A stretch of 64,000 nucleotides of DNA. Origin: an uncultured delta proteobacterium (GTDB taxonomy: Bacteria; Desulfobacterota; Binatia; UBA9968). The stretch spans positions 128,001 to 192,000 of the forward strand of contig CAVTUQ010000007.1 of assembly GCA_963737905.1 (NCBI GenBank), given 5' to 3'. The notes under the pieces were generated by a model. That model did no database searches, had not been told where the DNA came from, and saw only the letters and a program-made list of their open reading frames with translations. Of the stretch, positions 10,643 through 64,000 are shown piece by piece (positions within the stretch are counted from its first letter, which is position 1; the number at the start of each line of letters is the position of its first letter). The position numbers and the translations under genes were made by a program.

Positions 10643-10643
10643 C

Positions 10644-12436: not shown

Positions 12437-12461
12437 AAAGTTTGGTTTCTTGCGGGCTGCC

Positions 12462-13454: not shown

Positions 13455-13531
13455 TGGGCCTCCTGTGGGATGCAAGGCTAGATTTGTGACGGCTTATAAC
13501 TCACGGCTTTGCGATTTTCCAGAACAGCTTT

Positions 13532-13564
13532 GGGAGCCTCCTGGATTTGTTCCAGGAGGCTCCC
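13532..13564. terminator. Perfect 14-bp stem-loop just downstream of the minus-strand propeller gene
   Basis: GGGAGCCTCCTGGA-TTTGT-TCCAGGAGGCTCCC. The U-tract is weak, so it may be a terminator or an mRNA-stabilising hairpin. Confidence 0.65.
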
Positions 13565-13578
13565 TTTATGGAACAGCG

Positions 13579-32092: not shown

Positions 32093-32181
32093 GATCGAGC
32101 CGAAGAATTAGCTTTACAAAAGTATTTGAATTTGTTACAAAAAGAGACCTTAGACGCGATTCCCATGGCTATCTACCGGTC

Positions 32182-34563: not shown

Positions 34564-34621
34564 CGTGGCGCGTATTTTCGTTATTTCACCTGCCTAAATC
34601 GCAGCAATTCGGAGGACCCAA

Positions 34622-36189: not shown

Positions 36190-36193
36190 ACAG

Positions 36194-36631: not shown

Positions 36632-36658
36632 CCTTTCGGGTGAAGGACTGTTCCAAGC

Positions 36659-37435: not shown

Positions 37436-37463
37436 CGGCCGGCAGCCCGTTTTATTACCACCC

Positions 37464-39195: not shown

Positions 39196-39221
39196 GATGC
39201 GGTTTAGAGTCCGGTTTCAAA

Positions 39222-42145: not shown

Positions 42146-42161
42146 TCTCTGAAGAAAACAG

Positions 42162-43454: not shown

Positions 43455-43485
43455 GGCTGCAAATCAAAGCCGTGATTCGAGTTAG

Positions 43486-44550: not shown

Positions 44551-44610
44551 AATAGGGGGAACCGTTGGCGCTGCGGTATTCGGACTGCCGCCATTTAAGA
44601 AAGGCATTCA

Positions 44611-45552: not shown

Positions 45553-45617
45553 AACTCTTACGAATGACAGTGGCCTTTCAAAGGTTAATCTAGGCCCTTT
45601 GAGAAAAGGAGTGTTCG

Positions 45618-45785
45618 ATGTCGATCAGTAAAGAGTTATTGGATATCCTGGCGTGCCCCAAGTGTAAGGGGGATATTCATCTAAACGAGCACGGCGATGG
45701 TTTGATCTGTGATGCCTGCCGCCTCCTGTATCCCATCAAGGATGATATTCCGGTGATGTTGATCGACGAGGCCGTGCGACTGTAA
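45618..45785 (+). CDS. ycaR: Trm112/YcaR-family protein (55 aa, not in ORF track)
   Basis: MSISKELLDILACPKCKG...CDAC..YPIKDDIPVML. AAGGAG RBS. Confidence 0.9.
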   Translation: MSISKELLDILACPKCKGDIHLNEHGDGLICDACRLLYPIKDDIPVMLIDEAVRL

Positions 45786-45788
45786 ATC

Positions 45789-46889
45789 ATGGATCCACGC
45801 ATTTGGGATAAGGTCTTGGTGGTTCAGACGAGCTTTCTCGGCGATACCGTTCTAACGGTCCCGTTGCTATACGAGATCAAACGGCGTTTCCCTAAGTCGA
45901 AGCTCAGTCTTCTTTGCACGCCGCTGGGGCAGGAGCTATTGTCGGATCATCCCGCCGTTGATGAGATTATCGTCGACGACAAAAAAAAACGCGACCGTGG
46001 GTGGACGGGTTTGTGGCGAAAGGCGGGGCTTCTTAGGCGTCAGGGATTTACGATGGCCTTGTGCCCGCATAAATCCTTTCGTAGTGGCTTGCTCTTGTTT
46101 CTGGCAAGAATACCTCTCCGGGTGGGCTTCGCCCAAAGCAAGAGCTTTTTCCTCTTCCCTGTGCGCGTCAACCGCAATGCAAAGCGACACGACGTGGATC
46201 GCACCCTTTCCGTTCTCGAGGGATTAGGGATACGGACCGAAGAGTGCGAACGCGTATTGGATATTCCGATCACAGCGGATGCGCGGGAAGATGTTATTCG
46301 GGAGTTCCACTCCTTGGGTCTGGACACGTCGAAGATGCTGATCGGACTGCATCCGGGATCGGTATGGGCCACGAAGCGATGGTCGGCGGAGGGTTTTGCG
46401 CGACTCATAGAGTTGCTGAAGGAAAGATACACTTGTGAGATACTCCTATTCGGCGGTCCCGAGGACGGGGAGGTCGTTGCCAAAGTTCAAAACCTTTGCG
46501 CCGGTGGCGCAGTGAGCCTGGTTGATCGGATTGGACTCCGCGAGCTTCCTGCAGCTTTAAGCCAGTGCAGGATTCTCATCACGAATGATAGTGGGCCTAT
46601 GCATATCGCCGTCGCGGAAGCTGTGCCGGTGATCGCAATCTTTTGCGCAACCACCCCCTCGCTCGGTTTCTATCCATACTCATCCAGAGCGATGGTGTTG
46701 GAAAAGAATCTATCGTGCCGTCCATGTAGCTCCCATGGCGGGCGGCGTTGCCCCCTGGGCACTGAAGATTGTATCCGTCTGATTGGCCCTGCACAGGTTT
46801 TTCAGGCGGTGGAGCGACTCCTCGAAGAAACGAGCCGGCCGGATTTCGTGATGGCGAATCGTTACGTGCCGCAGTTCGTAGCGGTCTGA
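45789..46889 (+). CDS. waaF: LPS heptosyltransferase II-like (GT9)
   Basis: TSFLGD, HPGSVWATKRW, TNDSGPMHIA, CRPC. Confidence 0.8.
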   Translation: MDPRIWDKVLVVQTSFLGDTVLTVPLLYEIKRRFPKSKLSLLCTPLGQELLSDHPAVDEIIVDDKKKRDRGWTGLWRKAGLLRRQGFTMALCPHKSFRSGLLLFLARIPLRVGFAQSKSFFLFPVRVNRNAKRHDVDRTLSVLEGLGIRTEECERVLDIPITADAREDVIREFHSLGLDTSKMLIGLHPGSVWATKRWSAEGFARLIELLKERYTCEILLFGGPEDGEVVAKVQNLCAGGAVSLVDRIGLRELPAALSQCRILITNDSGPMHIAVAEAVPVIAIFCATTPSLGFYPYSSRAMVLEKNLSCRPCSSHGGRRCPLGTEDCIRLIGPAQVFQAVERLLEETSRPDFVMANRYVPQFVAV

Positions 46890-46977
46890 TCTTCCTCTGC
46901 GTAAACAGTTGCCAACTTCACCAGCTTAAAATAAAGCCTTAGCAATTTGGGCTTGTAACGGCGAATCGCGGGGGGAC

Positions 46978-47787
46978 ATGAGTCGTGGATATTGGATAAT
47001 GTCGACTTCCCGAGATTGGCCGTGGGGCGTTGTTCCGCCAGGGTTCAGAAGAGTGGTCGATGGACGCGGGAGCCTGATGATCGTTCGAGAGGATGTTGCA
47101 GAATTTCTTACCATCGAGGAATGCACGAAAGAGAACCCTGAAGATGACCACGAGCCCGCCGTCTTCCAGGGAAGGGGAAGGTTACGGGCTATTAAGCTTC
47201 GCAATGGTGATGCGGCGCTGGTCCGACCCTATCGACACGGGGGCTTGTTTCGTCATTTGCTGGACGGGATTTTTTTTACTTGGCCGCCACGGCCCTTTAG
47301 GGAATTAGCGATCACCGAAGAGGTGCGCCGACGCGGCATCCCCACGGTTGAGGTCTTCGGTGCCTGCGTGAAGCGTATTGGCGGGCCGTGTTACCGTGGC
47401 TGGCTGGTGACACGACAGTTGAATGGCGGCGAGGATCTATGGACGGCCATTCGAGACGGTCTCGTTCGTCGGGCAGGAGCCCAGAAAGTTTTGGACGCGG
47501 TGGCAGGGAGCCTTCGGGCTTTGCATCGTGAGGGTATCTATCATCGGGACCTGAACCTGAAGAATATCATGGTACGTCGTGAGTCCGACGGGGTGAAGGG
47601 ATACATCATCGACTTTGACCGGGCTATGCTCTTCTTGGGAGAGGTTCCACCGAACCGGGCGCAGCGAAACCTCAACCGTCTCCTCCGGTCGGCGAATAAG
47701 TTGGACTCGAAGCGGGAGTATTTCTCCGTCGATGATTGGAAGAGGTTCGTCGATTCATATCGTGGGCACAATGCGGCCGAGCCCTAA
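46978..47787 (+). CDS. Kdo kinase-like LPS kinase (KdkA/WaaP family)
   Basis: RPYRHGG, RPFREL, HRDLNLKN, IIDFD, NLNRLLRS, resembling KdkA. Confidence 0.8.
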   Translation: MSRGYWIMSTSRDWPWGVVPPGFRRVVDGRGSLMIVREDVAEFLTIEECTKENPEDDHEPAVFQGRGRLRAIKLRNGDAALVRPYRHGGLFRHLLDGIFFTWPPRPFRELAITEEVRRRGIPTVEVFGACVKRIGGPCYRGWLVTRQLNGGEDLWTAIRDGLVRRAGAQKVLDAVAGSLRALHREGIYHRDLNLKNIMVRRESDGVKGYIIDFDRAMLFLGEVPPNRAQRNLNRLLRSANKLDSKREYFSVDDWKRFVDSYRGHNAAEP

Positions 47788-49701: not shown

Positions 49702-50833
49702 GCGATTAGATAGAAGGGGCGGAACCGAATTAGACTTCTATCGGACCGCCAGCGGTCTAAAAGATCTCGGCCACGAGGTTCATTTATTTTGTAGCGAATT
49801 TGCAATTGAGCCGCCACCGGGCACTTATACGCATTCCATACCCATCGTGCCGCTAGGGCGCACGGCGCGACTGTGGAGTTTTGCCAGAGGTGCTCCAAAG
49901 ATAATGCGTCCGTTCCCATGTGACGTGGTTGTCAGCTTCGGACGTATGATCTCGCAAGATGTTCTTCGCAGCGGCGGCGGTTCCCATCGGGCATTTTTGC
50001 AGAAGTCGGGTGCGGAGGGTGGGCTCGGACGGCGACTGTGGCAAGATCTGAGCCCGTACCACCGGACCCTTCTTGCTTTAGAACAGCGACAATTTCAGCC
50101 AGATCATTACAAACGAATCCTCGCGGTATCCGAAGAGGTCAAGCGGGAACTGTTGGGTACCTATGCTATCCCCGAAGACAAAATCACTGTGATTTATAAC
50201 GGCGTGGACGAGCAGCGATTTGATTTCAGCTTAGGCGATAAATTTCGTGCGCCTATAAGACAACAATGGCATATTCCATTGGATGCGCCTGTGGTCTTAT
50301 TTGTCGGAAACGGCTTTCGCCGGAAAGGCTTGGATCGTTTGCTGAAAGCATGGAGTTCACCGCAAATGAAAGACACGTACCTTGTGGTAGTTGGGGAAGA
50401 CGCGCAACGGGCCAGGTACAAAGCGCTAGCCGAGGAGCGGGCCAGGGGTAAGGTTATCTTCGTCGGAAGACGCGACGACGTCGAGAAGTATTACGGCGCA
50501 GCGGATCTGCTGGTGCTACCGGCAGTCCAAGAGGCTTTTGGCAATGTGGTTTTGGAGGGCTTGGCGGCGGGATTGCCCGCTGTGGTGAGCGCAGTCGTCG
50601 GTGCATCCGAGATTCTCGAGGGTGGACTGGCGGAAGGGATCATCGCCCATCCAGAGGATCCGAAGGACATGGCAGCCAAGCTGTTGACGATGCTCGAGCG
50701 AGGCCGCAATCGGGCGTTTTCCGTGGAGGCCAGAAGGTTGGCTGAAGGGTATTCATGGAACAACCATTTCAAGAAGTTAGACGGGTTCCTTAAAGACCTT
50801 GTTGAAGAGGGTGGGTGTGGATCACCAGCCTGA
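49679..50833 (+). CDS. Glycosyltransferase family 4 (WaaG-like)
   Basis: GGTE, YNGVD, FVGNGFRRKGL, EAFGNVVLEGLAAGLP. Confidence 0.88.
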   Translation: MKIALVHKRLDRRGGTELDFYRTASGLKDLGHEVHLFCSEFAIEPPPGTYTHSIPIVPLGRTARLWSFARGAPKIMRPFPCDVVVSFGRMISQDVLRSGGGSHRAFLQKSGAEGGLGRRLWQDLSPYHRTLLALEQRQFQPDHYKRILAVSEEVKRELLGTYAIPEDKITVIYNGVDEQRFDFSLGDKFRAPIRQQWHIPLDAPVVLFVGNGFRRKGLDRLLKAWSSPQMKDTYLVVVGEDAQRARYKALAEERARGKVIFVGRRDDVEKYYGAADLLVLPAVQEAFGNVVLEGLAAGLPAVVSAVVGASEILEGGLAEGIIAHPEDPKDMAAKLLTMLERGRNRAFSVEARRLAEGYSWNNHFKKLDGFLKDLVEEGGCGSPA

Positions 50834-51695
50834 ATTTGTCTTGGAGAAGCGGGGATCGCTGTCGATACGGGTGGCACGGACTTTCGCCAACGACCTAGTA
50901 CCTGACATCGCGCCCGATCCGGATCGCCTGTTTCACTTACCGGGATGCGTGATCATCAAGGACCAGAGAAAAATTAAAGTCGCGCGTATCAAGGTGAAAA
51001 TTCAAGGGAACGCGAAAACGGTCTATCTCAAACGTTATAATACCTTCTCTTGGCGCTATCGGTTCGGATCTATCTTTCAGTTCTCCGGGGCCGTCAGGTC
51101 ACTCCATGGAGCTGCAATTTTGTCCCAATCCGGCATCGCGACGGCGCGTCCATTGGCTGCGGTCGACTCGAGATCATGGGGAATGTTGGACGGAAGTTTT
51201 TTTCTATCGGAGGAGATCGAGAATGGGAAGACCGCGGACGCGTATTGGCGGGAAGAACTGGTGACTATCAAAGGGAAAGAGGGAATGCAGAGGCGCAACC
51301 GGTTCTTACGACGAATGGGTGAGTTGTTTCGTCGCCTGCATGATCAAGACGTTTATCATAACGATCTCAAGGACGCCAATATTCTCGTCTGTCGAGATTC
51401 TAGTGGAGGCGCCGAGCACTTTTATCTCCTCGATCTGGAAGGCATTCGCCGCTATCGGAAGTTGAATCGGCGGCGGCAGGTTAAGAATCTGGTCCAGTTA
51501 AACCGCACGCTGGGCAAGTATCTACGAGCGACAGACAAGCTTCGCTTCCTTGAAAGCTACATGGGGTCGTCGTTTTCAAATCGAATCGATAAGAGAGATT
51601 GGGTCGCAAGCGTTCTCACACAAAGTAACCGTCTGGATCGCCTTCAAAACATCAAGGTGTCGTCTATTGCAATGGCAGGAAACACCGGCGCGTGA
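50817..51695 (+). CDS. LPS kinase (InaA/WaaP/Kdo family)
   Basis: VYLKRY, LHDQDVYHNDLKDANIL, LLDLE, KNLVQLN. Confidence 0.82.
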   Translation: MDHQPEFVLEKRGSLSIRVARTFANDLVPDIAPDPDRLFHLPGCVIIKDQRKIKVARIKVKIQGNAKTVYLKRYNTFSWRYRFGSIFQFSGAVRSLHGAAILSQSGIATARPLAAVDSRSWGMLDGSFFLSEEIENGKTADAYWREELVTIKGKEGMQRRNRFLRRMGELFRRLHDQDVYHNDLKDANILVCRDSSGGAEHFYLLDLEGIRRYRKLNRRRQVKNLVQLNRTLGKYLRATDKLRFLESYMGSSFSNRIDKRDWVASVLTQSNRLDRLQNIKVSSIAMAGNTGA

Positions 51696-53332: not shown

Positions 53333-54271
53333 ATGAATTTGCATGTTCTCGTCACCGGCGGTGCTGGCTATCTGGGGTCTGTGTTATGCGAGCGTCTGCT
53401 CGCCGCCGGATACCGGGTAACAGCCGTGGATGATCTGATGTATCAACAGCGAAGCTTGCTTCACCTCTGTGCCAACCCACACTTCGATTTTGTCTTGGGA
53501 GATGCGCGGGACAAAGAGCTGATGCAGCGTCTGGTGAAAGAGGCCGATGTGCTGATTCCCCTTGCCGCCATCGTAGGAGCACCCGCGTGCGACCGAGACC
53601 CGTTGCTGGCACGGTCAGTCAATCTGGAAGCCGTTCGACTCCTCAATGATTTGCGGAGTGCTCAACAGCCGATCATCTATCCGACTACCAATAGCGGCTA
53701 CGGTACGCAGTCCGGCGACCTCTTTTGCACGGAAGATACGCCACTGCAGCCGATCTCACTTTACGGTCAGACCAAGAGTCAAGCTGAGGCAGAACTATTA
53801 GAGGCGCATAATGTGATTACGTTAAGATTGGCGACGGTGTTCGGCATGTCGCCGCGCATGCGTCTTGACTTGTTGGTCAACCATTTTGTCCATGCGGCCA
53901 TCACGGATGGTTACCTTGTCATTTTCGAGAAGGACTTTAAGCGCAATTACATTCATATTCGCGACGTGTCGGATTGCTTTGTCCATTGCATCGATAACTT
54001 TAAAAGAATGGCGGGGCGACCCTACAATGCCGGCCTGGACGCCGCCAACCTGTCCAAGGAAGAATTGGCATTGAAGATCAAAGCGTACGTGCCCAATTTC
54101 TACATTCACTTCGCCCAGGTAGGATCCGATCCGGATAAGCGCAATTACGTCGTTTCGAATCAGCGATTGCGTGAGGCTGGCTTTGAAGCCCGGCGCTCGC
54201 TGGACGATGGAATTGGAGAGCTGCTCAAAGGATATCGGATGACGGGACGGGCTCGGTTTAAGAACGTTTGA
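53333..54271 (+). CDS. Extended SDR resembling GDP-D-glycero-D-manno-heptose 4-dehydrogenase (Campylobacter Cj1427-like)
   Basis: TGGAGYLGS, PLAAIVGAP, YPTTNSGYG, YGQTK, RLATVFG.SPRMRLDLLVN, DPDKR. Similarity to Cj1427 is from recall, not a computed alignment. Confidence 0.75.
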   Translation: MNLHVLVTGGAGYLGSVLCERLLAAGYRVTAVDDLMYQQRSLLHLCANPHFDFVLGDARDKELMQRLVKEADVLIPLAAIVGAPACDRDPLLARSVNLEAVRLLNDLRSAQQPIIYPTTNSGYGTQSGDLFCTEDTPLQPISLYGQTKSQAEAELLEAHNVITLRLATVFGMSPRMRLDLLVNHFVHAAITDGYLVIFEKDFKRNYIHIRDVSDCFVHCIDNFKRMAGRPYNAGLDAANLSKEELALKIKAYVPNFYIHFAQVGSDPDKRNYVVSNQRLREAGFEARRSLDDGIGELLKGYRMTGRARFKNV

Positions 54272-55050
54272 AAGGCCATGGCGCAGTGCCAACGGAAATG
54301 TCAACTTCGAACTTGCGACGAACCGATGCCGTGCGTGAATTAACTGAGGTCACGGCGGCGATACTCGTTGGGGGACTGGGGAGCCGGTTGCGTCCCGCGG
54401 TGACCGGTCGTGCGAAGGCGCTTGCCAACGTGGGAGAACGACCCTTTCTCACCTATCTGTTCGATCAGCTCGTTGCGGCGGGCACGAGAGACGTCGTGTT
54501 GTGCACAGGATACCTAGGCGATCAGATACCCATGATATTCGGTGAATCCTATGGCACCCTCCGCCTTAGCTATTCCCGGGAATCCACGCCACTGGGGACG
54601 GCAGGTGCGCTTAGATTGGCGCTGCCATTGTTCAACTCCAATCCTGTGTTGGTGATGAATGGCGATTCGTATTGCGACGCAAACCTCAAGGAGTTTTGGT
54701 TTTGGCACGGTAGGAGGCAGGCGGCGGCGACGTTGTTTCTCACCAAGGTTTTGGATAGCGAGCGTTTTGGGCAAGTACAAGTCGATCACTATGGCCTGGT
54801 AACCGACTTTAAAGAGAAGGGCAGCGGAGGGGGCTTGGGTTGGATTAGTTCGGGTATTTATCTGCTAAGCCGTGATTTGCTGGCGGAGATTCCAGCGGAT
54901 CGCGCCGTCTCTCTGGAGCGAGAGGTTTTCCCGAACTGGATCGGCCGCCGACTTTATGGCTTTCAACGGGAGGCCCGATTTATAGATATCGGAACGCCGG
55001 AAGCCTATGAGAGCGCACAATCGTTTTTCGCTACGGGTTTGGGGAGATGA
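54268..55050 (+). CDS. hddC: Nucleotidyltransferase, HddC-like heptose-1-phosphate guanylyltransferase
   Basis: ILVGGLGSRLR, PLGTAGAL, NGDS, SLEREVF, FIDIGTPE. Adjacent to gmhB and hddA. Start uncertain. Confidence 0.75.
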   Translation: MKGHGAVPTEMSTSNLRRTDAVRELTEVTAAILVGGLGSRLRPAVTGRAKALANVGERPFLTYLFDQLVAAGTRDVVLCTGYLGDQIPMIFGESYGTLRLSYSRESTPLGTAGALRLALPLFNSNPVLVMNGDSYCDANLKEFWFWHGRRQAAATLFLTKVLDSERFGQVQVDHYGLVTDFKEKGSGGGLGWISSGIYLLSRDLLAEIPADRAVSLEREVFPNWIGRRLYGFQREARFIDIGTPEAYESAQSFFATGLGR

Positions 55051-55616
55051 AGCGGCGGCCATTCGTATTGCTGGATCGCGATGGAACCATCATCGTTGAG
55101 CGCCATTATCTTGCAGACCCGCGGCAGATTGAATTTTTGCCCGGGGCAATCAACGGCCTGCGTCAAATGCGCACCCTGGGACTTGGGTTAGTGGTGGTAA
55201 CCAATCAGTCTGCAGTCGGACGCGGCTTCTTTGATGAGAGCCACTTGAATCTCATTCATCGCCATCTCTGCGAACTCCTGAAAGACGAGGGCATCCAGCT
55301 AGGAGGCATCTTTTTTTGTCCCCATACGCCCGAGACGAATTGTTCCTGCCGCAAGCCTCGCCCCGGTCTGGCCGAGCGAGCGGCCCAAGAGCTGGCATTT
55401 GATCTGCAAGCGAGTTTTCTCATCGGTGATAAACCCGCCGATATTGAATTGGGGCGAAATGTCGGGGCAACGACATTTCTAGTGCGCACGGGTTATGGTG
55501 CGGGCTTTGTGAACGATCCGACCGTCCATCCAGACTACGTCGCCAATGATTTGTCGGCGGCGGCTCAAATCATGGAGAGCTTGCTCGATGCCAATGAGCG
55601 CAACGTGGTGCCATGA
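55047..55616 (+). CDS. gmhB: D-glycero-D-manno-heptose-1,7-bisphosphate 7-phosphatase
   Basis: LDRDGT, TNQS, CPH...CSCRKP, IGDK..D. Confidence 0.9.
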   Translation: MKRRPFVLLDRDGTIIVERHYLADPRQIEFLPGAINGLRQMRTLGLGLVVVTNQSAVGRGFFDESHLNLIHRHLCELLKDEGIQLGGIFFCPHTPETNCSCRKPRPGLAERAAQELAFDLQASFLIGDKPADIELGRNVGATTFLVRTGYGAGFVNDPTVHPDYVANDLSAAAQIMESLLDANERNVVP

Positions 55617-56689
55617 TCATTAGCAGGACGCCATTTCGTGTTTCTTTTTTCGGTGGCGGAACCGACTACCCGGTATGGTACCGCACCTATGGTGGAGCGG
55701 TGCTGGCCACGACCATCGACAAGTATTGCTATCTAACTTGCCGTTATTTGCCGCCCTTTTTCGAACACAAGATTCGCGTCGTCTATTCGAAAATCGAGAA
55801 TTGCCACAGCGTTGAGGACATCGCCCATCCGGCTGTGCGGGAGATACTACGCTACTGTAGGATCGATCGTGGTGTGGAAATTCATCATGATGGCGATCTG
55901 CCCGCCCGCAGCGGAATGGGCACGAGTTCATCTTTCACCGTGGGCCTGTTGCATGCTCTTTATGCTCTCAAAGGACAGATGCCGTCCAAAGCGCAACTGG
56001 CTAGGGAAAGCATCGGTATCGAGCAGGAGATTCTCAAGGAGACCGTGGGGTCTCAGGATCAAGTCTTGGCGGCCCACGGCGGTCTCAATCATGTGGTTTT
56101 CCATACCAGCGGTGAAATTACGGTGAAGCCCGTAACGGCAACTGTGGGACGGGTCAACGAGCTCAATCGGCACTTGATGCTGTTCTATACCGGGATTCGG
56201 CGGACAGCCTCCGATGTTGCGGAAAGCTACGTTAATGGTCTGGAGGACAGGGAGAGGCAACTCCGAATTATTGGCGACCTGACAAACGAAGGTGTGTCGG
56301 TTCTTTGCGGCAAGAGCAAAATCTTTGTTTTTGGCGAATTGTTGCATAAAGCCTGGCAAGTAAAGCGGGATCTCAGCTCTAAAGTTTCGAATTCGGAGAT
56401 TGAAGAGATCTACACCGAAGCGATGTCAGCTGGGGCGGTTGGTGGAAAACTGCTGGGCGCCGGTGGGGGCGGGTTTATTCTTTTTTTTGTGCCCCCTGCC
56501 AAACACACTGCCGTGAAGCGAAGACTCAACAAGCTAATTTATGTTCCCTTCAAGTTTGAATCCTCGGGTAGCCAAATTATTTTTTTTGATCCGGAACAGG
56601 ATTATTCTCGAGAGGAAAGGGCGCGCATATTTCCACCTGACTTGGTCTTTCGGGAGCTTTCGATCAAGGCCATCAATCATAAACCGTGA
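55613..56689 (+). CDS. hddA: GHMP kinase, D-glycero-alpha-D-manno-heptose-7-phosphate kinase-like
   Basis: RTPFRVSFFGGGTD, DLPARSGMGTSS, GSQDQ, GKLLGAGGGG. Confidence 0.82.
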   Translation: MIISRTPFRVSFFGGGTDYPVWYRTYGGAVLATTIDKYCYLTCRYLPPFFEHKIRVVYSKIENCHSVEDIAHPAVREILRYCRIDRGVEIHHDGDLPARSGMGTSSSFTVGLLHALYALKGQMPSKAQLARESIGIEQEILKETVGSQDQVLAAHGGLNHVVFHTSGEITVKPVTATVGRVNELNRHLMLFYTGIRRTASDVAESYVNGLEDRERQLRIIGDLTNEGVSVLCGKSKIFVFGELLHKAWQVKRDLSSKVSNSEIEEIYTEAMSAGAVGGKLLGAGGGGFILFFVPPAKHTAVKRRLNKLIYVPFKFESSGSQIIFFDPEQDYSREERARIFPPDLVFRELSIKAINHKP

Positions 56690-57624
56690 AGCAAACCGAT
56701 CGTATCTACGTTGCCGGCAGTGAGACTCTCGTCGGAAAAGGGCTCCTGTGTCGATTGGCTTTGGCCGGCTATTCTAATGTCGTCGATACTTCGTCCGTAG
56801 AGCCAGACCTGACCGATGGCGCGAAGGTCAATGCGTATTTCGAAGCCACGAAGCCGGATTATGTCTTTCTCGCGGCCGGCACGTCGGGAGGTATTGGAGC
56901 CAATCAAAAGTATCCCGCCGACTTGATGCTCAATAATCTATTGATTCAATGCCAGATCATTCGCAGCGCCCAACGGCATGGTGTCCGAAAGCTCTTATAT
57001 TTGGCAAGCTCCTGTACCTATCCGCGCTCCAGTCCGCAGCCGATGCAAGTCAAATCCCTGATGACAGGGCCATTGGAGGCTACCAGCGAAGCCTACGCGA
57101 TGGCAAAGATTGCCGGCATCAAGCTATGTCAGGCGTACCGCCAGCAACATGGTGCGGATATGATTAGCGTAATCCCGGGTGATGTCTTTGGGCCCGGCGA
57201 TGATTTCAGCTTGGAGGACGGCCATGTCATCGCCGCCCTCATTCGTAGAATGCATCAAGCAAAAATTGACGGCGCGCAAACGATCGAAGTCTGGGGCTCA
57301 GGTTCGCCGCGGCGGGAATTCATCTTTGTCGATGACGTTGCGGATGCGGCCATCTTCTTGATGCAACGCTATAGCGATCCGACGCCCGTCAACGTGGGCA
57401 ACGGAGCTGAGATGTCGATCAAGGATATTGCCGAGCTGATTCGAAGAGTGGTCGGCTACGAGGGCCAGTTGCGATTTGATCCCGCAAAGCCGGATGGCAT
57501 GCCGCTGAAAGCGCTCGACTCCAGCGAGCTGATGGCGATGGGATGGCGGCCAAAAGTTTCTCTGCGGGCCGGTTTGGAAGAAACCTATCGCTGGTTCATG
57601 GATACCAACAAAGATGCCGTCTAA
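56686..57624 (+). CDS. GDP-L-fucose synthase-like epimerase/reductase (Fcl/WcaG/ColC family)
   Basis: GGIGAN, SSCTYP, YAMAK, HVIAALI, WGSGSPRREF, KPDGMP. Confidence 0.85.
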   Translation: MKQTDRIYVAGSETLVGKGLLCRLALAGYSNVVDTSSVEPDLTDGAKVNAYFEATKPDYVFLAAGTSGGIGANQKYPADLMLNNLLIQCQIIRSAQRHGVRKLLYLASSCTYPRSSPQPMQVKSLMTGPLEATSEAYAMAKIAGIKLCQAYRQQHGADMISVIPGDVFGPGDDFSLEDGHVIAALIRRMHQAKIDGAQTIEVWGSGSPRREFIFVDDVADAAIFLMQRYSDPTPVNVGNGAEMSIKDIAELIRRVVGYEGQLRFDPAKPDGMPLKALDSSELMAMGWRPKVSLRAGLEETYRWFMDTNKDAV

Positions 57625-58567
57625 AGAGATATACGAGAGGCTCTACCGATCGCTCTACCGGATTCGGCGGGCAGAGGAGGAGATTGCGCGAATCTATCCC
57701 AGCGACAAGATCAAGAGTCCGGTACACCTTTCCATCGGGCAGGAAGCGGTTTCCGTTGGAGTCTGCGAAGCCCTGCGGCCACAGGATGTGGTTTTTGGGA
57801 CCTACAGGAGCCATGCCTATTATTTGGCAAAGGGTGGCGATCTAAAAAAGATGATTGCCGAACTTTACGGCAAAGCCACGGGTTGCGCCAAAGGGAAGGG
57901 AGGTTCCATGCATCTTATCGACGCAGCTCATGGGATCATGGGCGCTTCGGCCGTGGTGGGGACGACGATCCCCAATGCCGTCGGTTATGCCTACGCGCTA
58001 AAGCTGCAAAGAAAAGACTCTATTGTGGTTAGCTTCTTCGGGGACGGCGCGACGGACGAGGGAGTCTTTTACGAAAGTCTAAATTTTGCCGCACTGAAGC
58101 AGCTGCCGATTATTTTTGTGTGTGAGAATAATTTTTACGCCATTCATACCCATTTGCTGCACCGGCACAGAGACGTGAATTTATGCGAACGGGTAAGCGC
58201 CTACGGCATTCCCGCCGAACAGATCGCGGCCAACGACATACTCAAGATTAATGAACGGGTAAAGGCTGTTGTTGACCTGTTGCGCGCCAACCAAGCTGGA
58301 CCGTTCTTCTTCGAATGCTTGACCTATCGCTGGAAAGAGCATGTTGGACCCAACGATGATTTCCATTTAGGCTACCGCAGTTACGAGGAGGCTCGTCCCT
58401 GGATAGAGGGAGACCAGGTTAGGCGGCTGTCGGCTCTTATGGCGCCGGAAAGCCGTGGGGGTATAGAGGCCCAGGTGGAGGAAGAAATCCAAGCGGCCTT
58501 CGCCTGTGCGGAGAATGATGCCTTCCCGCAGGCACACGAGTTGCTGACCGATGTGACTGGAGACTAG
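57614..58567 (+). CDS. ThDP-dependent enzyme, E1-alpha-like subunit
   Basis: HLSIGQEA, YRSH, GKGGSMH, GDG...ENN ThDP motif, YRWKEHVGP. Confidence 0.9.
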   Translation: MPSKEIYERLYRSLYRIRRAEEEIARIYPSDKIKSPVHLSIGQEAVSVGVCEALRPQDVVFGTYRSHAYYLAKGGDLKKMIAELYGKATGCAKGKGGSMHLIDAAHGIMGASAVVGTTIPNAVGYAYALKLQRKDSIVVSFFGDGATDEGVFYESLNFAALKQLPIIFVCENNFYAIHTHLLHRHRDVNLCERVSAYGIPAEQIAANDILKINERVKAVVDLLRANQAGPFFFECLTYRWKEHVGPNDDFHLGYRSYEEARPWIEGDQVRRLSALMAPESRGGIEAQVEEEIQAAFACAENDAFPQAHELLTDVTGD

Positions 58568-58569
58568 AC

Positions 58570-59616
58570 GTGGAGCGCCTTTTATCCTACGTGGATGCGA
58601 TTCGTGAAGCCACGGATCAGCAGATGGCAGAAGATCCTTCCGTCGTTGTGTTTGGGCTCGACGTGGACGATCCTAAAGCCATACAGGGAACGACCCGGGG
58701 GTTGGCAGAGAAGTATGGCCCCGAGAGGGTTTTTGGCACCCCACTTTCCGAGGAAGCGATGACCGGCGCGGCCATCGGTATGGCCCTGGCTGGCTTACGT
58801 CCCATCCATGTCCATATCCGGATGGATTTTCTCATGCTGGCGATGAACCAGCTCGTCAATGTCGCTGCCAAAAGTCGCTATATGTACGGCGGGCAAGTTC
58901 ATGTGCCGATGGTGGTTCGCTGCATGATCGGCAAGAGTTGGGGCCAAGGAGCGCAGCACTCGCAAGGGTTGCATTCTTTTTTTATGCACGTTCCCGGGCT
59001 GAAGGTCGTCGCTCCCACCAATCCCTACGATGCCAAAGGCTGTTTGATACAGGCGATCAGAGACAATGATCCTGTGATTTACGTCGAGCATCGCATTCTT
59101 CACTTCCAAAAGGGAATCGTGCCCGAGCCGCTCTACGGGATTCCACCCGGGAAGGCGCGTGTGTTGGAGGAAGGGAAAGACGTCACCCTGGTCGGCATTT
59201 CCTACATGCTGACGGAATGTCTGAGAGCGCGGCGCTACCTTGAGACTGTCCACGTTCAGGCGGAGGTGATCGACCCGATCTGGCTGAGTCCCTTGGATAC
59301 CGAGACAATCGTCCAGTCGGTCAAGAAGACCGGGAGGTTGTGCGTCGTCGACAACGGCTGGACTACGTGCGGTGCCAGCGCCGAAATCGTGAGCCGCGTC
59401 ATTGAGCGATTGCAAGGCGAAAGGCAGGTCGTCATCCATCGCATGGGGTACGCGCCCGCGACGTGTCCGCCGACACCTTCGCTCGAAGATCTCTATTATC
59501 CGAACGCCCGCACTATCGCCTCGGCCGCCTACGATTTGGTCAAGGGCGGCCATAATCGCTGGTTGCCGCAAGAGCGCGAAGAGCTTCAGGAGATGGAATT
59601 CCGGGGTCCGTTTTAA
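58570..59616 (+). CDS. ThDP-dependent enzyme, E1-beta/transketolase-C-like subunit
   Basis: TPLSE, G.RP, NVAAK, GAQHSQ, PGLKVV, DPIWLSPLD. Confidence 0.9.
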   Translation: MERLLSYVDAIREATDQQMAEDPSVVVFGLDVDDPKAIQGTTRGLAEKYGPERVFGTPLSEEAMTGAAIGMALAGLRPIHVHIRMDFLMLAMNQLVNVAAKSRYMYGGQVHVPMVVRCMIGKSWGQGAQHSQGLHSFFMHVPGLKVVAPTNPYDAKGCLIQAIRDNDPVIYVEHRILHFQKGIVPEPLYGIPPGKARVLEEGKDVTLVGISYMLTECLRARRYLETVHVQAEVIDPIWLSPLDTETIVQSVKKTGRLCVVDNGWTTCGASAEIVSRVIERLQGERQVVIHRMGYAPATCPPTPSLEDLYYPNARTIASAAYDLVKGGHNRWLPQEREELQEMEFRGPF

Positions 59617-59624
59617 CTGCAACG

Positions 59625-60816
59625 GTGGACACTCCGACAAATCTCGATTGGCCCTTGATGAAAAACAATATCTCAAGGGCGGACCTCGCTGTTGTTATTA
59701 GTTTCCTTCAGCAGGATGATCCGATTCTCACTCAAGCCAGCCAAGTGCAAGCGTTCGAGAAAGAATGGTCGGCTTGGCTTGGCGTGAAACACAGCGTTTT
59801 CGTAAACTCCGGTTCCTCGGCCAATCTGTTGACGATCGCTGCCCTTCGAGAGCGATACGGTTTGGGGGAGATCATCGTTCCAACGCTAACCTGGGTATCG
59901 GATATTGCGTCGGTCATTCAGTGCGGATTCAAGCCTGTTTTCGTGGATATAGATCGTCGCACCCTGGGGATGGATAACGCAGAGATAATCGGCAAGATCA
60001 CATCCCAGACTAAAGCGGTCTTTTTGACCCACGTGCTGGGGTATAATGCCCTCAGTCAATCTCTGATGGACGAATTGGACGCGCGTAAAATTCCCCTGAT
60101 CGAGGATGTTTGCGAGTCTTACGGGGCGACTTTTGCCGGTCGAAAGCTCGGCACCTTCGGACTCATGGCTGATTTCTCCTTCTACTACGCGCATCATCTA
60201 ACGACGGTCGAAGGAGGAATGATATCCACCAACGATGGGGACTTGTACGAGACTCTTCGGATGCTTCGCTCCCATGGAATGGTGCGCGAGTCGAGCTCCG
60301 CTGCATTGCGGCAATCCTATGCGGAGAAGCATCCTGACCTAAACCCGGATTTTATCTTTGCCTTCCCGGCTTATAACATGCGCAGTACGGAGATAAGCGC
60401 TGTCATGGGTCGCTCACAAATCAAGCGTCTTGATGAAAACAATAGGCTCCGATCCGAGAATCTGGCCCTGTTCCTGAAGAGTCTGGATCCTGCAAAGTAT
60501 CGGATCGATTTTGAAACGGCAGGCAACTGTAACTATGCGTTCACACTCGTACTCAAGCGACCAGACCCTGTGCTTTGTGATAAAGTCATGAAAACGCTGG
60601 ACTGCTATGGCGTCGAATATCGTCGGGGCACCTCCGGAGGGGGAAATCAACTTCGCCAACCTTATTTAAAACGACTGTTGGGCGGGCCGGACCTCAAGGC
60701 AATTTCCCAACGTGGAACATATCCATTTTTACGGTTTTTATATTGGCAACTATCCTGGACTGGAGCGTGAAAAGATTCTCGCCTTGTGTTCGCTATTGAA
60801 CAGTATTAAGGAGTGA
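59625..60816 (+). CDS. DegT/DnrJ-fold PLP enzyme, ColD-like NDP-4-keto-sugar 3-dehydratase, with an apparent +1 frameshift near 60700
   Basis: VNSGSSANL, IEDVCES, SFYYAHHLTTVEGG (His at the Schiff-base Lys position). C-terminus continues in the next frame as FPNVEHIHFYGFYIGNYP...IKE*. Confidence 0.82.
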
Positions 60817-60863
60817 CGACTCTGCCCGAGAGTTCAAGTGTTTTTTCAGAGTCAAATTCTCGG

Positions 60864-62369
60864 ATGACAAACCGCAAATTGGACCTCGTGTTGGTTAACT
60901 CTGGTAATCGAAGACAGGTGTTTCAGTCGCTCGCAGAGGATTTGGCGGCCGTTGAGCCTCCCGTTTGGGCAGGGTTGATAGCCACGTTTATTCGGGCCCG
61001 CGGTTTTGCGGTTCAAATCGTGGACGCTGAAGGGGAGGGGCTGAGCTTCGATGAAACAGCAAATCGAATTATCGATATGGATCCCACCCTCACAGCGGTC
61101 ATCGTTTACGGCCACCAACCTTCCGCATCCACACAAAACATGCCGGCGGCGGGGGAACTGTGTACGGCACTCAGGGAGAGAGCTCCCAATCTTAAGACGA
61201 TCCTGGTGGGAGGCCATGTAGCGGCCCTACCGGAACGTACTCTGCTTGAAGAAAATGTTGATTTCACCTGCGACGGCGAAGGGCCTCATACGATCCTCCA
61301 ATTGCTTCAAGCTCTGACGAACAAGGAAACCGAGCTCCGAAAAGTCGGCGGCCTGGTGTACCGGAGCGGGGGGACGATTGCCCGGTCTGGTCCAGCAGCG
61401 CTGGTCAGCGACTTGGATACAGAAATGCCGGGCATGGCTTGGGACCTCTTGCCGATGCAGAATTATAGGGCGCATAATTGGCATTGTTTTGGTGATTTGG
61501 TACGCCAGCCCTATGCTTCGTTGTACACGACTTTAGGCTGCCCCTTCCGTTGTAGTTTTTGTTGTATTCAGTCGCCTTTCAAATCGGGCGAATCGTTAAT
61601 GGGACTCAAGGCTGCGACGAATAGCTATCGACTGTGGAAACCGAAGACGATTATTACTGAAATTGACAAGCTCGTGAATCAGTATGGGGTTCGTAATATC
61701 AAAGTAGCGGATGAACTGTTTGTTCTTAATCCTAAACACGTGACCGATCTTTGTGATCTCCTCATTGAGCGGAATTATGATCTCAATATCTGGGCCTATG
61801 CGAGAGTCGACACGGTCAAAGAGGCAATGGTGGAAAAGCTCAAACGAGCCGGCGTTAACTGGCTTGCCTTTGGAATTGAAGCCGCGAGTGAACGAGTCCG
61901 CGATGATGTCGCAAAAGGCTTTGATCAGAATGATATCGCAACAACCATCGGCAAAGTCAGGGCTTCGGGTATTAACGTGATCGGCAATTTTATTTTCGGC
62001 CTGCCTGAGGACAACCTGTCGTCTATGCAGGCGACTCTCGATCTCGCGGTAGAACTCAATTGCGAGTTTGCAAATTTCTACGTCGCTATGGCCTATCCAG
62101 GCTCCCAGCTCTACAACGATGCTGTCCGGAACGGTTGGCCTTTGCCTGAGACTTGGAATGGCTATTCCCAGCATGCGGTGGATACGCTTCCCCTGCCGAC
62201 GAAATATCTGTCTGCTGGGGAAGTTTTGCGGTTTCGCGATGATGCGTTTCGGGTGTACTTCAAAAATCCCAACTATTTGACCATGATATCCAGGAAGTTC
62301 GGGCCCCAGACCTGCGCGCATATTGATGAAATGGCCTCCCATCGCCTCGAACGGCGTTACGCTTCCTGA
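60864..62369 (+). CDS. Cobalamin-binding radical SAM protein (class B methyltransferase-like)
   Basis: N-terminal B12-binding domain (PPVW, VGGHV..LPE), GCPFRCSFC, FGIEA, FIFGLPED, YPGS.LY. Confidence 0.88.
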   Translation: MTNRKLDLVLVNSGNRRQVFQSLAEDLAAVEPPVWAGLIATFIRARGFAVQIVDAEGEGLSFDETANRIIDMDPTLTAVIVYGHQPSASTQNMPAAGELCTALRERAPNLKTILVGGHVAALPERTLLEENVDFTCDGEGPHTILQLLQALTNKETELRKVGGLVYRSGGTIARSGPAALVSDLDTEMPGMAWDLLPMQNYRAHNWHCFGDLVRQPYASLYTTLGCPFRCSFCCIQSPFKSGESLMGLKAATNSYRLWKPKTIITEIDKLVNQYGVRNIKVADELFVLNPKHVTDLCDLLIERNYDLNIWAYARVDTVKEAMVEKLKRAGVNWLAFGIEAASERVRDDVAKGFDQNDIATTIGKVRASGINVIGNFIFGLPEDNLSSMQATLDLAVELNCEFANFYVAMAYPGSQLYNDAVRNGWPLPETWNGYSQHAVDTLPLPTKYLSAGEVLRFRDDAFRVYFKNPNYLTMISRKFGPQTCAHIDEMASHRLERRYAS

Positions 62370-62418
62370 ATTCAAAGCTCTATTAGGTCGGTTGATGGAG
62401 ATTTTGTTTCAGTCGAAT

Positions 62419-63336
62419 ATGGCGAGTCCTCTAGTCACCGTTATTCTTTTCGCCCACGCTCCCTACGCGAAGTTTTTGCCGTCTTCGTTGGAATCCATAC
62501 TCCATCAATCGTATCGCGATTTGGAGGTCCTAGTTTTAACAGATGGAAGCAAGGACGTCGGGATTGTGATTGAGCGATATATGGATGATGGGCGGGTCAA
62601 GCTCTGCGCCCAGGCGCACCCGTACTTCCTGGAAACAGCGAATGAATTGATGATGGAGTCTAAAGGGGAATATCTCGGCACGTGGAATAGTGACGACATC
62701 TATAATGACAAACATGTCGAGCTGCTCGTTCAGGCCTTGGTGAATGACCCCGAGGTGGGAGGCGCATTCGATAATACCGAATATTTCAGGGAGTCGGAGC
62801 GAAGTGAAATAAGCGAGGGCTTGATTGTGCCCGAGGACAGCGCAAAAACATTATCTTCGCGGCGCCTATCGGTTCAGCATATTTTCAACGAAAATATCAT
62901 GACCGGTCCTTCTTCGCTCATCAAAAAGGCCGCATTTGAACGTGTCGGTGGTTATGACCGCAAAATCCGGCTCAACTGCGACCTGCACTGGTTTTATCGG
63001 CTCGGAGCCTACTTCCCTATTCGGTTCGTGAACTATGTTGGAGTGAGAAAACGGATTCATCCCCTGAATAACACCGCTGTGAATCCCCATTATGAGTTTG
63101 GCGTGACAGAGCTAGAGGACATTCGCGATTACTATCCTGAAGTCTACCAGCGGATTGGTAAAAGTGTTTTCAACAGGAAGCTTGGGAGAAAATATTTTCG
63201 CCTCGGATCTTATTACGAGGCGCGGGGTCAGCTCGCCCAAGCACGGCAGGCCTATAGAAAGGCGATGATCCTCCGCAAGCTTAGTTTCCGTTATAGTTGG
63301 GAGTATTGTCGATCCGCTTTCTTCCCTGGTTCCTAG
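62419..63336 (+). CDS. Glycosyltransferase family 2 with a C-terminal TPR-like helix pair
   Basis: SLESILHQSY, WNSDD, VGGYD, C-terminal YFRLGSYYEARGQLAQARQAYRKA. Start uncertain. Confidence 0.85.
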   Translation: MASPLVTVILFAHAPYAKFLPSSLESILHQSYRDLEVLVLTDGSKDVGIVIERYMDDGRVKLCAQAHPYFLETANELMMESKGEYLGTWNSDDIYNDKHVELLVQALVNDPEVGGAFDNTEYFRESERSEISEGLIVPEDSAKTLSSRRLSVQHIFNENIMTGPSSLIKKAAFERVGGYDRKIRLNCDLHWFYRLGAYFPIRFVNYVGVRKRIHPLNNTAVNPHYEFGVTELEDIRDYYPEVYQRIGKSVFNRKLGRKYFRLGSYYEARGQLAQARQAYRKAMILRKLSFRYSWEYCRSAFFPGS

Positions 63337-63461
63337 AGAGAATCGGCTGTTTCTCACTTTCGCCTAGAATTGAAATCCACAGCCCACGGCACTGGCGGGT
63401 GCAACGACGAGTTAGACCGTTCTCTACGAGTTCACCAGGTCCGGTGCGATTCTAAATGTTC

Positions 63462-64000
63462 ATGGCTTCGCTTCCCCATGTAAGTGTCATTGTGCCGACG
63501 TATAATCGAGGCGAAAGCTTGGAAAGGTTACTCACAAGTCTGGGCGCGTTGGAGCAGTCGGATTCGATCCTGGCTGAAGTGATTATTGTTGATAACGGCT
63601 CGACGGATAATACTGGAGAAATCCTGCTTCGGGAGAAGAGAAAGCGAAATCGATTTGATTTACGGGTGTCGAAGGAAGAGACCAAGGGCAAATCGAGCGC
63701 ATTGAACCAAGGTATCGGTCTCGCCCGGGGGGAAATCCTGATTGTTGTGGATGACGATGTCGTGGTGGACCATCGGTGGATGACTGAACATTGGGAGTGT
63801 CACCATGTCAGTGAGTTTGGCGCGGTTCAAGGCCGGGTTCTTCCGGGGGTGGACCCCCAAGGACGGCCAGCAGATCCGAGCCGGCTTCGGGAATATAATA
63901 TCCCCATCGTAGATTATGGCGGCGGCATTCGGCCCATCCGTGGATTCACCGGGACGAACGTTTCATTCAAGCGGGATATCGTTAGGCAAGTGGGGCTTTT
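63462..64000 (+). CDS. Glycosyltransferase family 2 (runs off the window end, not in ORF track)
   Basis: Translated by hand: MASLPHVSVIVPTYNR...VDNGSTD...ALNQG...VDDDV...GTNVSFKR. Confidence 0.88.
   Translation, partial: MASLPHVSVIVPTYNRGESLERLLTSLGALEQSDSILAEVIIVDNGSTDNTGEILLREKRKRNRFDLRVSKEETKGKSSALNQGIGLARGEILIVVDDDVVVDHRWMTEHWECHHVSEFGAVQGRVLPGVDPQGRPADPSRLREYNIPIVDYGGGIRPIRGFTGTNVSFKRDIVRQVGL

Follow-up and report, generated by a model that had tools for sequence, protein, structure and literature searches.

A stand-alone E1-type alpha/beta pair in a conserved nucleotide-heptose cassette: a candidate sugar-branching carboligase

The locus and its E1 pair

Here we present an analysis of two adjacent genes, encoding E1 alpha- and E1 beta-like subunits, in a 64,000-nucleotide stretch of DNA from an uncultured delta proteobacterium (GenBank assembly GCA_963737905.1, contig CAVTUQ010000007.1, positions 128,001 to 192,000), the whole of which is referred to as the window. 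E1 alpha with E1 beta is a textbook pair, which decarboxylates a 2-oxo acid to an acyl-anion equivalent held on thiamine diphosphate (ThDP); in the dehydrogenase complexes this group is then passed to lipoamide. The pair described here lies instead among nucleotide-sugar genes, and its features are as follows.

57614..58567, + strand: E1 alpha-like ThDP (diphosphate-binding) subunit, 317 amino acids; Pfam E1_dh, E 1.4e-59
58040..58132, + strand: ThDP motif GDG...NN, alpha residues 143-173
58325..58351, + strand: alpha loop YRWKEHVGP, residues 238-246; human pyruvate dehydrogenase (PDH) E1 alpha aligns YRYHGHSMSD
58570..59616, + strand: E1 beta-like (pyrimidine-binding) subunit, 348 amino acids; Transket_pyr 7.1e-35, Transketolase_C 3e-28
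59539..59613, + strand: C-terminal extension of the beta subunit, some 25 residues with EFRGPF at the end

The initial annotation of the window had placed the pair at 57614-59616, and both open reading frames (ORFs) are found exactly there as intact subunits. The nearest solved structures are pyruvate dehydrogenase E1 alpha 1ni4 (E 8.6e-44) for the alpha subunit and E1 beta 3duf (E 3.1e-64) for the beta subunit. Both subunits score below the NCBIfam cut-offs for PDH E1 equivalogs (alpha, TIGR03182, 286.1 bits against 393.85; beta, NF006667, 273.7 bits against 321), and by these cut-offs the pair is not a PDH equivalog. The family scores of transketolase (34 and 76 bits, cut-off 488) and DXS (27 and 54 bits, cut-off 466) were not reached either. 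Furthermore, the alpha subunit gave a marginal TPP_enzyme_C match only (21.5 bits, E 2e-4) and, in the Pfam scan, neither a TPP_enzyme_N nor a TPP_enzyme_M domain, which sets it apart from the single-chain architecture of YerE-like enzymes. At the DNA level, the 2 kb that encode the pair were without a match in 20,395 Escherichia coli records.

Alignment of the pair with its relatives revealed an unbroken active site. Alpha residues G143, N172 and N173 do not vary in any of the 85 aligned rows, and the same is true of beta E61, beta H130 and alpha H243, the last being the catalytic His of the YRWKEHVGP loop. With the ThDP motif, the activating Glu and both His residues invariant, the ThDP carbanion machinery is intact in what is a heterotetramer-type E1 alpha and beta. 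An argument from the E2-binding residues of E1 beta was also tried and dropped, since the residue numbers used did not fit the alignment.

Relatives and family signatures

Searches with the alpha subunit returned at least 8000 candidates at E 1e-10, and the best 120 listed are 72-97% identical to it. With the beta subunit, 19,065 of 1.84 billion cluster representatives gave a match (E <=0.001), alpha-beta fusions among them, and a scan of one genome per species gave at least 523 stretches encoding a relative. The source names of the listed relatives include "TPP-dependent pyruvate/acetoin dehydrogenase alpha subunit", "2-oxoisovalerate dehydrogenase E1 component", "pyruvate dehydrogenase E1 component alpha subunit" and "acetoin dehydrogenase", so that the mis-annotation foreseen in the initial annotation is seen in family members. 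For comparison of gene context we used the best 80 of the at least 523 loci (45-89% identity); the 72 of these with an alpha subunit at least 54% identical to that of the window are called the family. The controls were seven E1 pairs carried on plasmids, all of them with an annotated E2 gene next to the pair; to these the alpha subunit is 29-40% and the beta subunit 36-46% identical.

Two signatures, described here for the first time, run through the family. The first surrounds the alpha loop and reads TYRWKEHVGPN(D/E)DFHLGYR, with most columns at 90% consensus or more in 70 family rows; in the family this loop exceeds the YRxxGHxxxD loop of the seven E2-linked rows by 2-3 residues. The initial annotation had read the loop of the window correctly and had contrasted it with YRxxGHSxSD, which is the mitochondrial form, given that bacterial E1 pairs adjacent to E2 read YRxxGHxxxD. 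The second signature is a C-terminal tail of about 25 additional residues closing with the motif F(K/R)GPF, which ends every family beta subunit that reaches its own stop codon; outside this count are two rows truncated by their contigs (L005, L059) and four with incomplete beta matches (L030, L031, L038, L047). A similar F-x-GPF ending occurs in four of the eight deep-branching rows, and the tail was found in none of the E2-linked rows.

The two subunits are naturally fused at three loci, two from cyanobacteria and one from a verrucomicrobial bin, giving proteins of 672-686 amino acids (L004:10001-12037, L017:9989-12049 and L043:9995-12013). Fused representatives with the GPF tail are also present among P0125-P0218. 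An AlphaFold2 model of the L017 fusion, built from a 10-row alignment, had a mean pLDDT of 82.8 and a pTM of 0.86; its linker and last three residues fell below a pLDDT of 50, and the model is uninformative on docking of the tail.

The cassette around the pair

As the initial annotation had it, the pair stands between an Fcl-like and a ColD-like gene. The genes around it, and the two glycosyltransferase genes that follow, are listed below.

53333..54271, + strand: short-chain dehydrogenase/reductase (SDR), probable GDP-heptose C4-dehydrogenase, forming a 4-keto sugar with the C6 hydroxyl kept; PDB 6vo6/6vo8
54268..55050, + strand: HddC-like sugar-1-phosphate guanylyltransferase; NTP_transferase domain; NCBIfam HddC 129.5 bits, cut-off 300
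55047..55616, + strand: GmhB-like heptose 1,7-bisphosphate phosphatase; NF006506 164.8 bits (cut-off 178), TIGR00213 GmhB_yaeD 124 (149.6)
55613..56689, + strand: HddA-like GHMP heptose-7-phosphate kinase; GHMP_kinases_N and _C domains
56686..57624, + strand: Fcl-like SDR (epimerase/reductase); NCBIfam GDP-L-fucose synthase 404 bits, cut-off 500
59625..60770, + strand: ColD-type 3-dehydratase of nucleoside diphosphate (NDP)-4-keto sugars, dependent on pyridoxal or pyridoxamine phosphate (PLP/PMP), DegT family; best PDB match ColD 2gms, E 2.8e-50
60813..62369, + strand: B12-binding radical S-adenosylmethionine (SAM) enzyme; B12-binding and Radical_SAM domains
62323..63336, + strand: glycosyltransferase family 2 (GT2) gene; Glycos_transf_2
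63456..63998, + strand: second GT2 gene, cut by the end of the window; Glycos_transf_2

From 53333 to 60770 the genes overlap by 4-11 bases or stand at most 8 bases apart, the end of the Fcl-like gene overlapping the start of the alpha gene by 11, an arrangement that suggests one operon. The SDR at 53333..54271 aligns with 6vo6/6vo8 without a gap over residues 2-311 (E 1.7e-107, 362 bits; the next match has 87 bits), the database title of 6vo6 being "Putative sugar-nucleotide epimerase/dehydratease". The best PDB matches of the HddC-like protein are 6jq8/5xhw, "putative 6-deoxy-D-mannoheptose pathway protein" (E 5e-28), and the top four of the kinase are all heptose phosphate kinases (3k85, 4n3o, 4usk and 4usm; E 2.5e-35 to 2e-33). 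Those of the Fcl-like SDR are the GDP-fucose synthases 8du0 and 1bws (E 2e-84). In the ColD-like protein, His190 aligns with His188 of ColD, the residue altered in the H188N/K entries 3b8x and 2r0t, and this His marks the enzyme as a 3-dehydratase rather than an aminotransferase. The radical-SAM protein scored best among NCBIfam models with HpnJ (154 bits) and BchE (149), higher than with the AprD4 family (73.5), all far below cut-off; its best PDB match is the diol dehydratase AprD4 6fd2 (E 3.4e-16). In the ESM Atlas it met generic B12-radical-SAM clusters only; in one cluster of proteins closely resembling it, 60% of the members that have a record are viral (Uroviricota). The enzyme may carry out a ring closure, a methylation or a dehydration. 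The two GT2 genes may encode transferases for the product; because they are conserved in L002 only, their membership of the cassette is weak.

The cassette genes recur around the family pairs. Counts of genes within 9 kb of the pair are given for the 72 family loci and for the 40 of them, called well-flanked, in which 5 kb or more of sequence is available to either side.

ColD-like: 60 of 72 family loci; 38 of 40 well-flanked loci
HddA-like: 44 of 72; 30 of 40
Radical SAM: 37 of 72; 23 of 40
Fcl-like: 37 of 72; 22 of 40
6vo6-like SDR (at least 50% identity): 35 of 72; 22 of 40
HddC-like: 26 of 72; 18 of 40
GmhB-like: 12 of 72; 8 of 40
At least one of these sugar genes: 67 of 72

In 67 of the 72 loci, then, a stand-alone alpha/beta pair is set in a nucleotide-sugar cluster, and the order SDR, HddC, GmhB, HddA, Fcl, E1 alpha, E1 beta, ColD, radical SAM recurs under Chloroflexota, Cyanobacteriota, Binatota, Acidobacteriota and other labels. 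Enzymes that would supply an NDP-keto-sugar acceptor are common among the neighbours. Near the pair, 22 loci carry an SDR of the Gmd family, which in 18 family loci takes the place of the 6vo6-like SDR or accompanies it. An SDR of one kind or the other is present in 49 of 72. A His-type 3-dehydratase is present in 60 of 72: wherever a family locus has a DegT-like gene within 9 kb, a copy bears the His of the dehydratases and not the Lys of the aminotransferases. Both deep-branching loci with DegT-like genes, L078 and L080, have Lys in that column.

Individual loci showed further variation. A GmhA-like SIS gene lies within the cassette in 16 loci, and a NUDIX hydrolase gene, likewise internal to it, stands beside the kinase gene in cyanobacterial loci (L004:7490-7969, L010, L017) as well as on a plasmid of Solidesulfovibrio magneticus RS-1 (L092:5406-5885). 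In one Reyranella locus the cassette is followed by a gene for an aldo/keto reductase (L060:6704-7705), which recalls Pau7, the enzyme of that class that reduces the paulomycin C4-acetyl branch. Two deep-branching pairs are accompanied by a second ThDP enzyme, an acetolactate-synthase-like protein at L070:13626-15602 and a split transketolase at L074:14623-16350.

Absence of E2 and E3 genes

No lipoyl, 2-oxoacid_dh or pyridine-nucleotide-disulfide oxidoreductase domain was found in any of the 57 window ORFs scanned (16 + 41; ORFs below 150 amino acids in positions 1-48000 and ORFs overlapping annotated genes were left out), which bears out the statement in the initial annotation that the window has no lipoyl-domain or dihydrolipoamide dehydrogenase gene. 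Likewise, at the 80 loci, 89 otherwise unmatched plus-strand ORFs of at least 250 amino acids and at a distance of 1.5-6.5 kb from where alpha begins were free of lipoyl, E2 and E3 domains. Among the ORFs scanned, a lipoyl-bearing E2 and the E3 that usually goes with it were thus found neither in the window nor at the 80 loci.

The remainder of the window is a lipopolysaccharide (LPS) region by its gene content, with BamA, Skp, LpxD, LpxA, LpxI, LpxB, an MsbA-like transporter, KdtA, LpxK, heptosyltransferases and WaaP-family kinases. Most of these form a contiguous envelope block at 32089-47787 (BamA, Skp, LpxD, LpxA, LpxI and not LpxH, LpxB, MsbA-like ABC exporter, KdtA, LpxK). Within it a GFO/IDH/MocA oxidoreductase gene sits between LpxI and LpxB, and an SDR and two GT9 heptosyltransferases are also present. 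Two Kdo/WaaP-family kinases are encoded at 46978-47787 and 50799-51695.

Phylogeny of the pair

A tree of concatenated alpha and beta subunits (85 rows, 656 columns; IQ-TREE, LG+C20 with posterior mean site frequencies, quick search) separated the seven E2-linked rows from 78 stand-alone rows, with an approximate likelihood-ratio support (SH-aLRT) of 100 for the split. The window pair falls in a 70-row family clade (SH-aLRT 100, stem length 0.89), in which its nearest rows are L001 (92% identity) and L002. This clade spans 16 phylum labels, which are labels of metagenome bins and subject to possible binning errors. Four loci with a short or missing beta match (L030, L031, L038, L048) were left out of both trees, and L085, with a short alpha match, was left out of the first.

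A second tree of 60 rows, to which four pairs were added and from which 32 family loci including L081 were omitted, gave the same split between E2-linked and stand-alone pairs, again with SH-aLRT 100 in a quick search. Clustering with true PdhA/B, the outcome against which the initial annotation had set its proposal, was seen in neither tree as far as the sampled E2-linked pairs go, the window pair splitting from these in both. Of the added pairs, that of the Streptomyces griseofuscus plasmid (L090) fell on the stand-alone side, as did that of the RS-1 plasmid (L092), which stands beside L076 and outside the family. The pair of an Azospirillum lipoferum 4B plasmid (L091) fell inside the family clade, beside L054. 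The Thermus "acoA" pair (L085) joined the E2-linked side. This last pair, annotated acoA/beta on Thermus thermophilus plasmid pTF21b (3986-5937), has no E2 annotated alongside and is followed by TRAP transporter genes, yet it groups with the E2-linked pairs.

Relation to known sugar-branching enzymes

The enzyme type and its chemistry are already known, since E1-like pairs that branch keto-sugars have been described (PMC12247030, PMC4425429). These "alpha-KADH2" pairs, which lack an E2, serve antibiotic pathways, where they attach a pyruvate-derived C2 branch to sugars with a ketone at C3 or C4, and for one of them, KbDH-alpha/beta of kibdelomycin, C2 branching was obtained in vitro on ketone analogues (PMC12247030). 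For AviB1/B2 of avilamycin and Pau11/12 of paulomycin the proposed C2 branching has knock-out support, the pau11 mutant losing paulomycin (PMC4425429, PMC4753412). The corresponding role of EvdU5/EvdS3 in everninomicin was still a hypothesis in 2023 (PMC10338323). Like the window pair, all four stand alone without E2 or E3 in a deoxysugar cluster, adjoined by NDP-keto-sugar enzymes, a likeness in gene setting. By analogy, the expected chemistry would be decarboxylation of pyruvate, addition of the C2 unit to a ring ketone to give a tertiary alcohol, and subsequent ketoreduction (PMC12247030, PMC4425429, PMC4753412, PMC10338323). The differences are threefold. The substrate predicted here is a GDP-heptose, whereas the alpha-KADH2 pairs act on TDP- or UDP-linked hexoses or pentoses; the locus lies in an LPS region and the family extends over 16 phylum labels, where the alpha-KADH2 pairs come from antibiotic clusters of actinomycetes; and the cassette holds a B12 radical-SAM gene, unlike those clusters.

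The LPS sugars themselves offer a second comparison. YerE, ErwE and MMAR_2332 (yersiniose, erwiniose, caryophyllose) are acetolactate-synthase-like ThDP flavoenzymes, and YerE-type enzymes catalyse the type of reaction proposed here, on an NDP-3,6-dideoxy-4-keto sugar made by a PMP-dependent 3-dehydratase, for Gram-negative LPS and with a reductase, YerF, acting afterwards (PMC9306805). Their fold is unrelated, however, being a single TPP_enzyme_N/M/C chain in place of E1_dh and a transketolase-like beta subunit, and their substrates are CDP-hexoses. By this comparison of domains the YerE type is an analogue and not a homologue of the pair. A 2025 review assigns YerE-like enzymes to LPS sugars and alpha-KADH2 pairs "mainly" to antimicrobial natural products (PMC12247030). 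With the E1 subunits PdhAB, AcoAB and BkdAB, on the other hand, the pair shares the fold, the ThDP motif, the activating Glu and the two catalytic His; it departs from them in lacking E2 and E3, in its sub-cutoff scores, in its separate clade and in its longer alpha loop and beta tail.

The neighbours of the pair have their counterparts in Campylobacter jejuni GDP-heptose biosynthesis (Cj1427, the HS:5 C3-dehydratase and the C4-reductases) and in the colitose enzymes ColD and ColC, which are of the same types. In vitro, GDP-D-glycero-3-deoxy-4-keto-heptose has been obtained with Cj1427 and a C3-dehydratase (PMC10680097). The portions of the published descriptions of the C. jejuni GDP-heptose and colitose pathways available to us mention no ThDP or radical-SAM step. 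Our literature search found neither this heptose cassette nor an E1-type branching enzyme in LPS loci; the work on thiamine-dependent sugar branching that it brought up was that on antibiotics and on YerE. A 2024 study by Krug et al., which reportedly covers about 120 biosynthetic gene clusters along with KbDH assays, may already contain the cassette.

Proposed pathway

Taken with the sub-cutoff scores, the absence of E2 and E3 and the two trees, linkage to keto-sugar genes argues in silico for the stand-alone keto-sugar carboligase that the initial annotation had proposed, an activity predicted from these features. We regard it as quite probable that the pair works without an E2, as a carboligase in a nucleotide-heptose pathway. 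The more specific proposal, to which we give somewhat better than an even chance, is that it adds the C2 unit of pyruvate to C-4 of a GDP-3-deoxy-4-keto-heptose destined for a cell-surface glycan.

The 6vo6-like SDR would oxidise the heptose at C4, and the ColD-type enzyme would take off the C3 hydroxyl to give GDP-3-deoxy-4-keto-heptose. After this deoxygenation, C4 would be the only carbonyl that the known enzyme types of the cassette provide. Given the in vitro precedent for this intermediate and those for E1-type branching, the cassette should make the 4-keto sugar and the E1 pair, having converted pyruvate to hydroxyethyl-ThDP, should add it to the C4 ketone. The product would be a tertiary alcohol bearing a 4-C-acetyl branch on a nine-carbon skeleton. 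The Fcl-like SDR might then reduce the ketone of the branch, in the role of YerF or Pau7, or epimerise C5, or both; the B12 radical-SAM enzyme would modify the product further, and glycosyltransferases would place the sugar on LPS or another glycan. The donor, the position of the acceptor, the sequence in which the enzymes act and the parts played by the Fcl-like and radical-SAM enzymes are all proposed from sequence and gene context.

Several observations weigh against this assignment. No ColD-like gene lies within 9 kb of the pair in 12 of the 72 family loci, and while many of these are short contigs, two of the 40 well-flanked loci also lack it. The outgroup is small, seven E2-linked pairs that are all plasmid-borne, and both trees come from quick searches. 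PDB entry 6vo6, the basis for calling the SDR a C4-dehydrogenase, we take provisionally to be Cj1427, the GDP-heptose C4-dehydrogenase. In RS-1 the cassette is found with an E1 pair of another lineage that carries neither the loop nor the tail signature, so the pathway does not require these signatures. By analogy with colitose, the SDR, ColD-type and Fcl-like enzymes would make a complete route to GDP-3-deoxyheptose; no C4 ketone would then remain for the E1 pair, unless the step of the pair precedes the reduction. The radical-SAM enzyme, whose best PDB match is a diol dehydratase, may create a different acceptor, a carbonyl in the side chain. Finally, only 64 kb of the genome was seen, and E2 and E3 may be encoded elsewhere.

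Alternative explanations

The last two points lead to rival explanations. It is conceivable, and in our estimate rather unlikely, that the pair extends the chain and does not branch it: the radical-SAM enzyme would dehydrate the C6-C7 diol to an aldehyde or methyl ketone, to which the E1 pair would add its C2 unit in the manner of 1-deoxy-D-xylulose 5-phosphate synthase, giving a linear nine-carbon deoxy-keto sugar, with the SDR, ColD-type and Fcl-like enzymes separately carrying out a colitose-like 3-deoxygenation and C4 reduction. The AprD4 match of the radical-SAM enzyme (6fd2, E 3.4e-16; NCBIfam AprD4, 73.5 bits) and the self-sufficiency of those three enzymes by the colitose analogy fit such a scheme. 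ThDP enzymes generally prefer aldehyde acceptors, and the initial annotation had allowed for extension as well. Nevertheless, the linkage of the pair is tighter to the ColD-type gene than to the radical-SAM gene (60 against 37 of 72; 38 against 23 of 40), HpnJ and BchE outscore AprD4 in NCBIfam, with all three far below cut-off, and the sugar-cluster E1-type enzymes described in the available text of the 2025 review all act on ring ketones, at C3 or C4 (PMC12247030). That the pair is a conventional E1, working in a 2-oxoacid or acetoin dehydrogenase complex whose E2 and E3 are encoded elsewhere, and is placed here by chance or to supply acetyl-CoA for O-acetylation, is highly improbable. Its fold, cofactor motif and catalytic His are those of an E1, and most of the genome lies beyond the window; against this stand the scores below the equivalog cut-offs, a sugar-gene cassette kept across 16 phylum labels, the lack of E2 or E3 alongside any of the 80 loci, the SH-aLRT 100 branch that separates it from E2-linked pairs, and a loop and C-terminal tail that those pairs do not have.

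A third explanation keeps the branching chemistry and changes the donor to acetoin, methylacetoin, a diketone or another 2-oxo acid, as with the E1 of acetoin dehydrogenase (acetoin:dichlorophenolindophenol oxidoreductase), which consists of alpha and beta subunits and makes tertiary alcohols from donors of this kind (PMC12247030). Our data are compatible with pyruvate and with these donors alike. However, KbDH-alpha/beta is limited to pyruvate, and feeding identified pyruvate as the donor in aldgamycin (PMC12247030); the sampled aco-type pairs L084 and L086 fall on the E2-linked side of the tree, and no gene for the synthesis of a special donor was found in the cassette. We therefore hold a donor other than pyruvate to be distinctly unlikely.

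Branching of GDP-3-deoxy-4-keto-heptose at C4 by pyruvate, the reading preferred here, can be carried one step further, to a candidate product that we put forward as a long shot. This is a carbocyclic nonose like caryose, built from heptose C1-C7 and an acetyl unit (C8 and the C9 methyl) at C4. Oxidation at C4 by the SDR, with no 6-deoxygenation, and C3 deoxygenation by the ColD-type enzyme would set the acceptor, and the radical-SAM enzyme would join C7 to C8; HpnJ and BchE, the named enzymes nearest to it, each form a five-membered carbocycle. These steps would account for each feature of 4,8-cyclo-3,9-dideoxy-nonose (caryose), the biosynthesis of which was called unknown in a 2022 review (PMC9092360). 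Neither Burkholderia nor Trinickia, the caryose producer, was among the best 120 matches to the Azospirillum alpha subunit, a list too shallow to count against the idea. A lead to bradyrhizose, with its 11-gene cluster, was dropped because the paper gives no gene list.

Cultured and off-pattern carriers

The whole cassette occurs in a cultured strain, at positions 2076-14762 of the 58.7-kb plasmid pDMC1 of S. magneticus RS-1 (L092), where identity to the window is 48% for the radical-SAM enzyme, 63% for the kinase, 49% for the Fcl-like enzyme, 51% for the SDR and 46% for the NTP-transferase. Following it is a glycosyltransferase gene annotated "phospholipid carrier-dependent" and with a Gene Ontology term for protein O-linked glycosylation. 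Family members on A. lipoferum 4B plasmid AZO_p6 (L091) and in A. ramasamyi (L081) have a variant cassette, with a 6vo6-like SDR, a His-type DegT enzyme, a fused HAD-IIIA/nucleotidyltransferase, MtnA-like genes, sulfotransferases and a WavE LPS gene. An MTAP-like gene is present in L091 only and not in L081, and no HddA or radical-SAM match was found near either pair.

The S. griseofuscus plasmid pair (pSGRIFU1, 8917-10963; L090) has the loop YRWREHVGP and a tail ending FAGPY. It is the only stand-alone pair reached from an actinomycete, and its neighbours are a condensation-domain protein, an acyl carrier protein and a phosphopantetheinyl transferase, not sugar genes; this setting suggests a further E2-independent use of the stand-alone clade. 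The plasmid search turned up no antibiotic sugar cluster.

Implications

The findings from this analysis provide a simple sequence test, the beta tail F(K/R)GPF together with the alpha loop, for telling such pairs from true E1 components in annotation. If the proposed reading is true, pairs now labelled pyruvate, acetoin or 2-oxoisovalerate dehydrogenase would mark a widespread pathway, with at least 523 loci in one-genome-per-species data, to an undescribed nine-carbon C-branched or cyclised heptose of bacterial surfaces, and the pair would offer a compact ThDP catalyst for forming tertiary alcohols on nucleotide sugars, one that is highly conserved among the matches listed (72-97% identity). 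On that reading, too, E1-type sugar branching would extend from a speciality of actinomycete antibiotics to general envelope biology. Should the caryose proposal hold as well, the wide distribution of the cassette would make sugars of this kind common among uncultured bacteria.

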